In this document: piece after piece, positions 5,872 to 6,584 of the stretch | Numbering within the stretch: position 1 is the stretch's first letter | Layout: each line of letters starts with the position of its first letter | Virus record (IMG/VR): IMGVR_UViG_2541047122_000023 | DNA length: 8,509 nt | From: a virus | Taxonomy: Duplodnaviria; Heunggongvirae; Uroviricota; Caudoviricetes | Direction: 5' to 3' (one strand) | Program-made: the position numbers and the translations under genes | The notes under the pieces: model-generated | The model's input: the letters and a program-made list of their open reading frames with translations, nothing else | Told to the model about the DNA's origin: nothing | The model's database searches: none

Positions 5872-6261
5872 TCAGGCGGCTGCACCCGCCGTTTTCTCGT
5901 ACTTACTGATAGTGATCTCGACCTTCCCTTCCGGGATAACCGGTCCCCACTCCACCAGCATTCTTTTCACCTGACTGTCGTCTTCCCACACACCCGCGTG
6001 GGTCAGGGCGTCAAACAGCGCCTTGTTATAGTTGTCCAGATCGCGGATCCGGTTATCCGGAGGAAACAACACGATCTCCACTGAAGCAGGTGCCGACGTT
6101 GGTTTCGGCAGACGACGTAACTGCTCAACTATTGCTGCGCACGCCGCGCTCTGGAATTTTCGCCCCGCCGCGCTTATCAGGCTCTTACCAGCAAACGCCC
6201 CTTTGTTGGGGTGTCGCCAGTACGTGTTCACGCTGGGCGGAAAAGGCAGGATCAGCTTCAT
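5872..6261 (-). CDS. rusA: RusA-family Holliday-junction resolvase, 129 aa
   Basis: MKLILPFPPSVNTYWRH...DNRIRDLDNYNKALFDALTHAGVWEDDSQV... matches the RusA signature (PPSxNxYW, RRDLDN, DDxQV). ATG at 6261 overlaps the upstream stop (ATGA). Confidence 0.88.
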   Translation of the reverse strand: MKLILPFPPSVNTYWRHPNKGAFAGKSLISAAGRKFQSAACAAIVEQLRRLPKPTSAPASVEIVLFPPDNRIRDLDNYNKALFDALTHAGVWEDDSQVKRMLVEWGPVIPEGKVEITISKYEKTAGAAA

Positions 6262-6584
6262 ACTTTCAGGTCCCTCTCATGTAACCAGTGGGTTGCACGC
6301 AGCCTTGCGTTTTCCTCACCGGCAAGCAGTGCGCGGATAATCCCGACCGCCTCGCTGTCGTCGTCCTTCACCGCGGTATGAAGCGTTATCCCCCGGGCCA
6401 CGCCACGCTTTATCGTGATGACGCCTTTTTTCTCCAGTGCGCGAAGATGCTCCACCGCTGCATTCACTGAACGGTATCCCAGCATGGTTGCCACCTCCTG
6501 ATTGGTTGGCGGGAAGCCACGTTCTTTCTGATAAGAAATCAGCATATCCAGCACCTGCTGCTGGCATTGAGTTAACGTCGTCAT
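6258..6584 (-). CDS. LexA-N-terminal-like winged-helix DNA-binding protein lacking a peptidase domain, 108 aa
   Basis: MTTLTQCQQQVLDMLISYQKERGFPPTNQEVATMLGYRSVNAAVEHLRALEKKGVITIKRGVARGITL parallels the LexA DNA-binding domain (compare LexA [68 protein letters not shown], from recall). There is no S24 peptidase region. Start and stop both overlap neighbours in ATGA arrangements. Confidence 0.6.
   Translation of the reverse strand: MTTLTQCQQQVLDMLISYQKERGFPPTNQEVATMLGYRSVNAAVEHLRALEKKGVITIKRGVARGITLHTAVKDDDSEAVGIIRALLAGEENARLRATHWLHERDLKV

Follow-up and report, generated by a model that had tools for sequence, protein, structure and literature searches.

What can a LexA-type DNA-binding domain do for a phage when it stands alone, without the peptidase part of LexA? 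The question is raised by a 327-bp gene in the IMG/VR virus record IMGVR_UViG_2541047122_000023, a stretch of 8,509 nucleotides (hereafter, the window) that represents the right arm of a lambdoid prophage. A sequence-only reading had taken the 108-amino-acid product for a non-cleavable LexA-like DNA binder, encoded in an ATGA-overlapped chain between a methyltransferase and the Holliday-junction resolvase RusA; it was silent on the wide prior annotation of the gene, on a conserved C-terminal hairpin and on RusA as the most constant partner. We found that the protein belongs to both the LexA_DNA_bind family and PHROG 362, and that its LexA assignment is secure. The existence of the gene is ordinary, as it is already annotated in thousands of genomes; what is new in this analysis is the comparative context, namely the linkage to RusA and an SOS-box operon in a Klebsiella-type sister subfamily. 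We consider it quite possible, a little short of probable, that the protein is an uncleavable, tail-dimerised LexA-type binder of SOS-box-like operators, made from a delayed-early transcript.

A LexA winged helix, a missing peptidase and a helical tail

The protein matches the Pfam profile PF01726 (LexA_DNA_bind) over its full length (positions 1-65 of 65; E = 2.9e-19; 69 bits against a gathering cut-off of 23.7), and its best solved relative by sequence is the N-terminal domain of E. coli LexA (phmmer against the PDB; 1lea, E = 6e-16), with about 50% identity to E. coli LexA over residues 2-70. An AlphaFold2 model of the whole protein (mean predicted local distance difference test score, pLDDT, 84) shows helices at residues 6-22, 28-35 and 40-52 and strands at 56-58 and 66-68. 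Used as a Foldseek query, this model retrieved LexA entries in the first 12 places, led by a LexA-DNA complex (3jso_B; root-mean-square deviation 1.0 Å over 68 residues, 50% identity). Such a likeness to LexA far exceeds what chance would give. Profile and fold searches thus agree in placing the protein in the LexA family and not in another winged-helix family, which bears out the likeness first proposed.

The proposed absence of an autocleaving domain was also confirmed. No Peptidase_S24 match was found in the 108-residue protein by the Pfam search, and rusA begins right at the end of the open reading frame (ORF). The chain ends at residue 108, and a C-terminal S24 domain with the catalytic Ser119/Lys156 dyad is absent. 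The NCBIfam lexA equivalog TIGR00498 scored 70.6 bits, below its cut-off of 110.95, with the match confined to model positions 1-91 of 203. By comparison, the phrog_362 profile aligned from end to end, tail included (residues 1-108 on profile positions 1-106 of 106; E = 3.8e-59). The protein thus falls short of a LexA repressor proper, as it lacks the S24 domain, an equivalog-level score and a conserved cleavage site. Without the catalytic Ser/Lys domain it would not cleave itself on activated RecA, so that DNA damage could not switch it off.

Compared with E. coli LexA (1lea, 3jso), the phage protein shares the winged-helix fold, the recognition-helix core S39/N41/A42/E45, and K53 and R64. 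It differs in having Val for both P40 and E44, in lacking the S24 peptidase/dimerisation domain and a conserved Ala-Gly site, with a helical hairpin instead, and in being encoded in a nin operon without an SOS box of its own. The architecture would be that of a 'mini-LexA', in which a LexA winged helix is followed by a short flexible linker (residues 69-74, low confidence in the AlphaFold2 model) and a hairpin of about 30 residues in place of the S24 domain. The tail pattern E-A-x-x-(I/L)-(I/L)-x-x-L-(L/M/I) ... A-x-x-x-A-x-x-(W/F/Y)-L is kept in relatives that are 40-50% identical. A hairpin of this size cannot form a stable core alone, and we therefore read it as a dimerisation module that replaces the C-terminal domain of LexA; we propose that it makes the protein a dimer. 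Engineered LexA(1-87) fusions used in bacterial two-hybrid systems show that the DNA-binding domain joined to a small heterologous dimerisation module suffices to repress SOS-box operators. Those fusions are artificial, whereas the phage arrangement is natural and conserved and its activity is predicted. A different composition was seen in six database proteins (P0130, P0131, P0148, P0150, P0153, P0156) with a tandem pair of LexA_DNA_bind domains per chain and no peptidase domain, which would be a covalent, pseudo-dimeric answer to the lost dimerisation.

The HMMER alignment to LexA runs through residue 90, into the first tail helix, and sets 'LLAGE' opposite the cleavage site 'VAAGE', with A88-G89 facing the scissile bond A84-G85. 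This correspondence would suit a decoy for the SOS cleavage machinery, in which 'LLAGE' would be a pseudo-substrate that ties up activated RecA or, in trans, the active site of LexA or cI. We regard such a decoy as highly improbable, since the Ala-Gly pair is not conserved (ANE, VGE or KGR in close relatives; ERE, TRK, DDQ, AEE and others in relatives at 40-50% identity) and the segment is predicted to be helical, unlike the strand-loop of the LexA cleavage region. On the same two grounds 'LLAGE' was rejected as a pseudo-cleavage site; it is at most a vestige of descent from a truncated lexA.

Recognition helix, SOS boxes and choice of operator

In E. coli LexA, the operator is contacted by S39, N41, A42, E44 and E45, all in helix 3 (PMC3091678). 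The alignment to E. coli LexA showed that four of these five residues are kept in the phage protein (S39, N41, A42 and E45) and that E44 alone is altered, to V; the operator-contact residues are thus largely those of LexA, so that their loss, which the sequence-only reading had named as grounds for refutation, did not materialise. We extended the comparison to 234 unique stand-alone relatives carrying the tail, in which position 39 is S in 233, position 41 is N in 232, position 42 is A in 218, and positions 53 and 64 are K and R, respectively, in 233 each; position 45 is E in 146 and D in 45. The near-invariance of S39, N41, A42, K53 and R64 indicates that the LexA recognition core is under strong constraint. 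Against the Citrobacter homologue, synonymous sites were saturated, and the DNA-binding domain alone gave a value for the ratio of nonsynonymous to synonymous substitution rates (about 0.07). Judged from these residues, binding to CTGT-type half-sites, possibly differing by subfamily, is likely but not certain, and the recognition helix (S39-x-N41-A42...E45) would direct the protein to CTGT-containing palindromes of the SOS-box type.

The best indirect support for SOS-box binding comes from a sister subfamily of the same PHROG 362, the Klebsiella type, whose gene lies behind the operator that it should recognise, as in an autoregulatory layout. In 27 of its loci a phrog_1813 ORF, a candidate antirepressor, ends 43-44 nucleotides before the LexA-like start. 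An exact CTGT-N8-ACAG box, typically taCTGTTTATTTATACAGta, is found upstream in 26 of these 27, and in 24 of those 26 a box sits 435-613 nucleotides before the LexA-like start. In the loci read directly, the box overlaps the -10 element of a recognisable promoter, and in L174 a terminator precedes it; a DinI gene stands between box and phrog_1813 ORF in 17 of the 27. The full order across L174-L200 (e.g., L186, 3322-4327) is terminator, SOS-box promoter, optional dinI, phrog_1813 ORF and LexA-like gene, and in several Klebsiella-type loci a second promoter with an SOS box lies some 1.1 kb further up.

This layout recalls the Gifsy dinI-antirepressor-irsA operon, which is experimentally LexA-controlled and triggers induction (PMC3121763): the Klebsiella-type genes occupy the same nin position behind a terminator and an SOS-box promoter, with dinI first in many loci. 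The window-type gene differs in not lying behind an SOS box. The phrog_1813 ORF shows no similarity to the ORF that Gifsy-2 has at the site assigned to gftA by Lemire et al. The third gene of the Gifsy operon, irsA, was considered as a member of the same family and rejected, because it encodes a DUF1367 protein.

SOS boxes elsewhere in phages that carry the gene are, by their sequence, candidate targets. Two lie upstream of a dinI-like gene in mEp460, cdtI and a Stx2c phage, and in mEp460, cdtI, SfV and a Stx2c phage another, TACTGTAAAAATAAACAGTG, falls within the 5' end of the N6_N4 methyltransferase gene of the late region. The latter is of high quality and sits about 10 nucleotides inside the methyltransferase start (L001, 41021-41040; L275, 44083-44102; L274, 8171-8190), which suggests that this late-region methylase may be under LexA control. 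In the prophage of the window itself, a 20-bp box with perfect 6-bp arms, TACTGTATATAAAAACAGTA, is located in cI (L002, 24244-24263, outside the window), 211 nucleotides from the start codon in the part coding for the inter-domain linker; mEp460 has an equivalent box in a related cI gene (93% identical in DNA). A roadblock and an internal promoter are candidate functions of this box. This cI allele occurs in 13 full-length phage records, all of them SfII, mEp460 or other members of the phage group that carries the LexA-like gene (the gene being name-confirmed in 12 of 13), and these phages are related, so that the co-occurrence is not independent evidence. Exact CTGT-N8-ACAG sites number four or five each in mEp460, cdtI and a Stx2c phage, and two in SfV (11-kb right arm scanned). 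Among comparison phages, lambda has one poor box and no good one, and Gifsy-2, which is without the gene, has four exact boxes, two of them good. This phage sample is too small and too related for an association between the gene and SOS-box content to be shown.

Several observations weigh against reading the window-type protein as a dimeric binder of SOS-box-like operators. The window contains no exact SOS box, and its five one-mismatch matches compare with three expected by chance, which leaves no target in cis there. In 80 loci, no SOS box was found within 2.3 kb upstream of the window-type gene, and autoregulation is therefore not indicated for this subfamily. Box presence does not discriminate either, since Gifsy-2 has boxes but no gene. 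Within the recognition helix, the loss of E44 is nearly universal (E in only 2 of the 234 relatives), about 18% of relatives have A, L, S or G at position 45, the Klebsiella-type proteins that stand behind SOS boxes are themselves altered at this position (SSPNAVALH), and a Citrobacter clade carries RSVNTITGH in place of RSVNAAVEH. Specificity may accordingly have drifted. The predicted template modelling score of the model (0.57) leaves the domain arrangement uncertain, and dimerisation through the hairpin is predicted. Finally, a copy of IS1203 sits between the early promoter region and the gene chain, on which its insertion may be polar; the LexA-like gene may thus be poorly expressed in this particular genome.

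Such drift has a precedent in gp6 of the Bacillus thuringiensis tectivirus GIL01, a truncated LexA homologue that activates the late promoter and recognises a distinct palindrome lying across the -35 element of that promoter (PMC6182141). It is the nearest characterised analogue, both proteins being phage-encoded truncated LexA homologues without a catalytic domain. GIL01 gp6 is shorter, with a winged helix only and a retargeted helix (K38), a separation drawn from its description and not from sequence, whereas the enterobacterial protein keeps LexA-like contacts, a conserved helical tail and a fixed linkage to rusA. The protein could likewise be a transcription factor specific to the phage, with a binding preference that has moved away from that of LexA; it would then activate or repress one or a few phage promoters through a palindrome of its own and have no role at host SOS boxes. 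The variation of positions 40, 44 and 45 between subfamilies fits this, as does the strongly altered Citrobacter clade, exemplified by a 67% identical member (L268, 3001-3318; Citrobacter sp. FP75), whose reworked helix suggests changed DNA specificity within the family; so does the place of the gene just upstream of the Q region, among regulators (PerC-like, KilA-N). However, the S-x-N-A core and E45 of gamma-proteobacterial LexA are kept far better than retargeting predicts, Q already serves late transcription in these phages, and no conserved alternative palindrome was identified, though no systematic search was made. On balance we rate retargeting as somewhat unlikely, and it would make the gene one more small phage regulator of local interest.

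Operon position, RusA and probable timing of expression

Along the minus strand, in transcription order, the genes are the interrupted replication gene, PerC-like/YfdN, Dam, LexA-like, RusA, KilA-N, DUF968/HNH and Q; after Q come two ORFs in AT-rich DNA, the truncated gene of an N6_N4 methyltransferase and the lysis genes for holin, lysozyme and Rz/Rz1 (Table 1). Both junctions of the proposed overlapping chain were read in the sequence. The plus strand reads tcat at either site, that is, ATGA on the coding strand: the stop codon TGA of Dam shares bases with the LexA-like ATG, and the LexA-like stop overlaps the ATG of RusA. The chain reaches one gene further upstream, as TAATG at 7232-7236 couples the PerC-like gene to Dam. 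A Shine-Dalgarno sequence, GGGAG (6593-6597), lies 8 nucleotides 5' of the LexA-like ATG. No coding-strand promoter was detected inside the chain (5900-8300) and no terminator-like site was found on the coding strand between the LexA-like gene and the genes upstream; the genes of the chain should therefore be co-transcribed from upstream. Because the LexA-like gene belongs to the delayed-early nin operon and no separate promoter was detected for it, its product should be made after induction and not in lysogeny. This argues against the earlier suggestion of an SOS-insensitive repressor in the sense of prophage immunity, which is unlikely given that the prophage also has a separate cI-type repressor and cro pair (L002 annotation).

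We then compared the neighbourhood of the gene in 260 viral-contig loci, which fall into five subfamilies 40-50% identical to one another. RusA lies directly downstream in 208 of 255 loci, and a 4-nucleotide overlap of its start with the LexA-like stop is the most frequent arrangement in three of the five subfamilies. About twenty further loci have one inserted gene between the two, and in L174-type loci a divergent RusA, missed by BLAST and found by Pfam, lies one small ORF downstream. Upstream neighbours, by contrast, fall into 21 unrelated clusters (Dam, PerC-like, C5 and N6/N4 methyltransferases, small ORFs and others), and about one in four near-identical loci lack Dam. It is thus RusA, and not the methyltransferase, that stays constant as a partner. 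At the upstream junction, four predicted proteins (P0026, P0092, P0098, P0119) join a Dam domain (PF05869) to the LexA-like domain; deletions or frameshifts where the two genes overlap are their probable origin.

So close a linkage raises the alternative that the protein is a DNA-binding accessory of the recombination module, a small dimeric binder or bender produced in fixed ratio with RusA and assisting or restraining junction resolution. A constant downstream neighbour across divergent subfamilies, one small gene away in most of the remaining loci, a conserved stop/start overlap and a variable upstream side are all in keeping with this. A parallel exists in lambda, where the Fis mimic NinH, a homodimer, is encoded immediately downstream of rap (PMC7166090), with an overlap of 4 nucleotides between ninG/rap and ninH (L276, 42429-43246 coordinates). 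Like the LexA-like protein, NinH is small, is encoded in the nin region and imitates only the DNA-binding part of a global regulator of the host, and its gene overlaps that of a junction nuclease by 4 nucleotides (ninG/rap in lambda, rusA in this prophage). The two proteins differ in fold and in the regulator imitated (Fis, not LexA, for NinH), and also in gene order, since ninH follows the nuclease gene and the LexA-like gene precedes it. On the other side, gene order in lambdoid nin regions is generally conserved, with DUF968 and Q also kept further downstream, so that adjacency may reflect inheritance of the module; the Klebsiella-type locus L186 has no RusA ORF where other subfamilies carry one; and an architectural role needs no LexA-like, sequence-specific recognition helix. 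RusA is, moreover, active without partners in vitro. We consider an accessory role unlikely.

For the reading as a binder of SOS-box-like operators, the operon position suggests when the protein would act. It would be translated from the delayed-early nin transcript (PerC-like, Dam, LexA-like, RusA) after induction or infection, as host LexA is destroyed, and would then re-occupy LexA operators, both at host SOS promoters and at the SOS boxes of the phage itself. What the analysis shows is the identity of the domain, the lack of a peptidase, the retained contact residues, the conserved tail and the place in the operon; dimerisation, the operators bound, repression as the direction of regulation, and any biological role or benefit to the phage are inferred. 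A more specific version, which we judge improbable, is a LexA mimic of lytic growth that re-closes the SOS regulon, silences co-resident prophages or other elements with LexA-controlled antirepressors or promoters, and lowers SOS-induced ruvAB so that Holliday junctions fall to RusA. With ruvAB turned down and junctions left to the co-translated RusA, the near-constant coupling to rusA would be explained.

Distribution, prior annotation and other features of the window

Of 5426 complete E. coli genomes, 2233 (about 41%) carry the gene, and the matching E. coli records share at least 95% identity with it in all but one case. It is named 'LexA family transcriptional regulator' in RefSeq annotation of E. 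coli genomes, and PHROG 362 is labelled 'transcriptional repressor'. Phages that carry it include mEp460 (as 'LexA DNA binding domain protein'), SfV (orf42), SfII, SfIV, cdtI and phi1720a-02, together with several Stx2a, Stx2c and Stx2k phages; in a comparative study of Stx phages, 15 have it as phamily 237, listed under pfam01726 as 'LexA family' (PMC8136144). Database names place close homologues in Salmonella, Citrobacter and Hafnia; more distant ones occur in Klebsiella and Kosakonia. A species-dereplicated genome scan yielded loci from Shigella, Citrobacter and Kosakonia only, plus one contaminant-like fragment, and with so narrow a yield the taxonomic breadth rests on database names. A literature search found no functional or experimental study of this PHROG 362-type LexA-like family. 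In the 'bully phage' study of phi1720a-02, prophage interference was put down to Cro, and the LexA-like gene lay outside its tests.

The gene is of some value for its abundance in pathogenic E. coli, for its presence in Stx2, cdt and serotype-converting phages of pathogens, and for a testable SOS-mimic hypothesis. If SOS-box binding holds true, a large share of E. coli strains would carry a damage-insensitive LexA surrogate; after induction of any one of these prophages, the surrogate could alter the SOS response and mutagenesis, as well as the induction of toxin phages and the competition among prophages. It would also be a second natural nin-region copy of the DNA-binding part of a global regulator, after lambda NinH and Fis.

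Table 1. Features of the window, with the parts of the LexA-like protein given first (plus-strand coordinates)
Feature	Position	Strand	Basis
Stand-alone LexA-type DNA-binding protein, 108 amino acids, ATG start	6258..6584	-	ORF list; Pfam PF01726; phrog_362; RefSeq name 'LexA family transcriptional regulator' (annotated so in L002)
Winged helix-turn-helix domain, residues 1-68	6381..6584	-	AlphaFold2 pLDDT about 80-90; Foldseek
Recognition helix, residues 40-52, VNAAVEHLRALEK, S39 just before	6429..6467	-	Alignment to E. coli LexA; family survey
Helical hairpin, residues 75-103 (helices 75-88, 93-103)	6276..6362	-	AlphaFold2 pLDDT about 90; conserved pattern
ATGA overlap, LexA-like stop / RusA start	6258..6261	-	Sequence reading
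ATGA overlap, Dam stop / LexA-like start	6581..6584	-	Sequence reading
RusA Holliday-junction resolvase, conserved downstream partner	5872..6261	-	Pfam RusA, E = 6.1e-15
Phage Dam N6-adenine methyltransferase, ATG at 7234, variable upstream neighbour	6581..7234	-	Pfam Dam, E = 5e-45
PerC-like (YfdN) regulator, first gene of overlapped chain	7234..7728	-	Pfam PerC, E = 3.4e-9
Replication gene interrupted by IS1203 at 8216	7725-8216		Intact in strain N8B7-2 (L002)
IS1203/IS629-type IS3-family element	from 8216 (8216-8509)		Transposase C-terminus at 8258-8464, minus strand
Q-type antiterminator	3280-4032		Pfam Antiterm match
ORF without Pfam match, 180 amino acids	2526-3068		
ORF without Pfam match, 77 amino acids	2149-2382		
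Truncated N6_N4 methyltransferase, C-terminal 104 amino acids left	1577-1891		

A near-identical region occurs in E. coli O157:H7 chromosomes, in a prophage at the tRNA-Thr gene adjoining proA, and the replication gene is intact in strain N8B7-2 (L002, 21847-22788). The Q-type antiterminator has a below-cut-off match (E = 2.8e-7) to the DnaJ CXXCXGXG zinc-finger motif. The stretch at 2000-3450, which separates Q from the lysis genes, has a GC content of 37-42%, against about 52-57% in neighbouring phage genes, and looks like a moron insertion.

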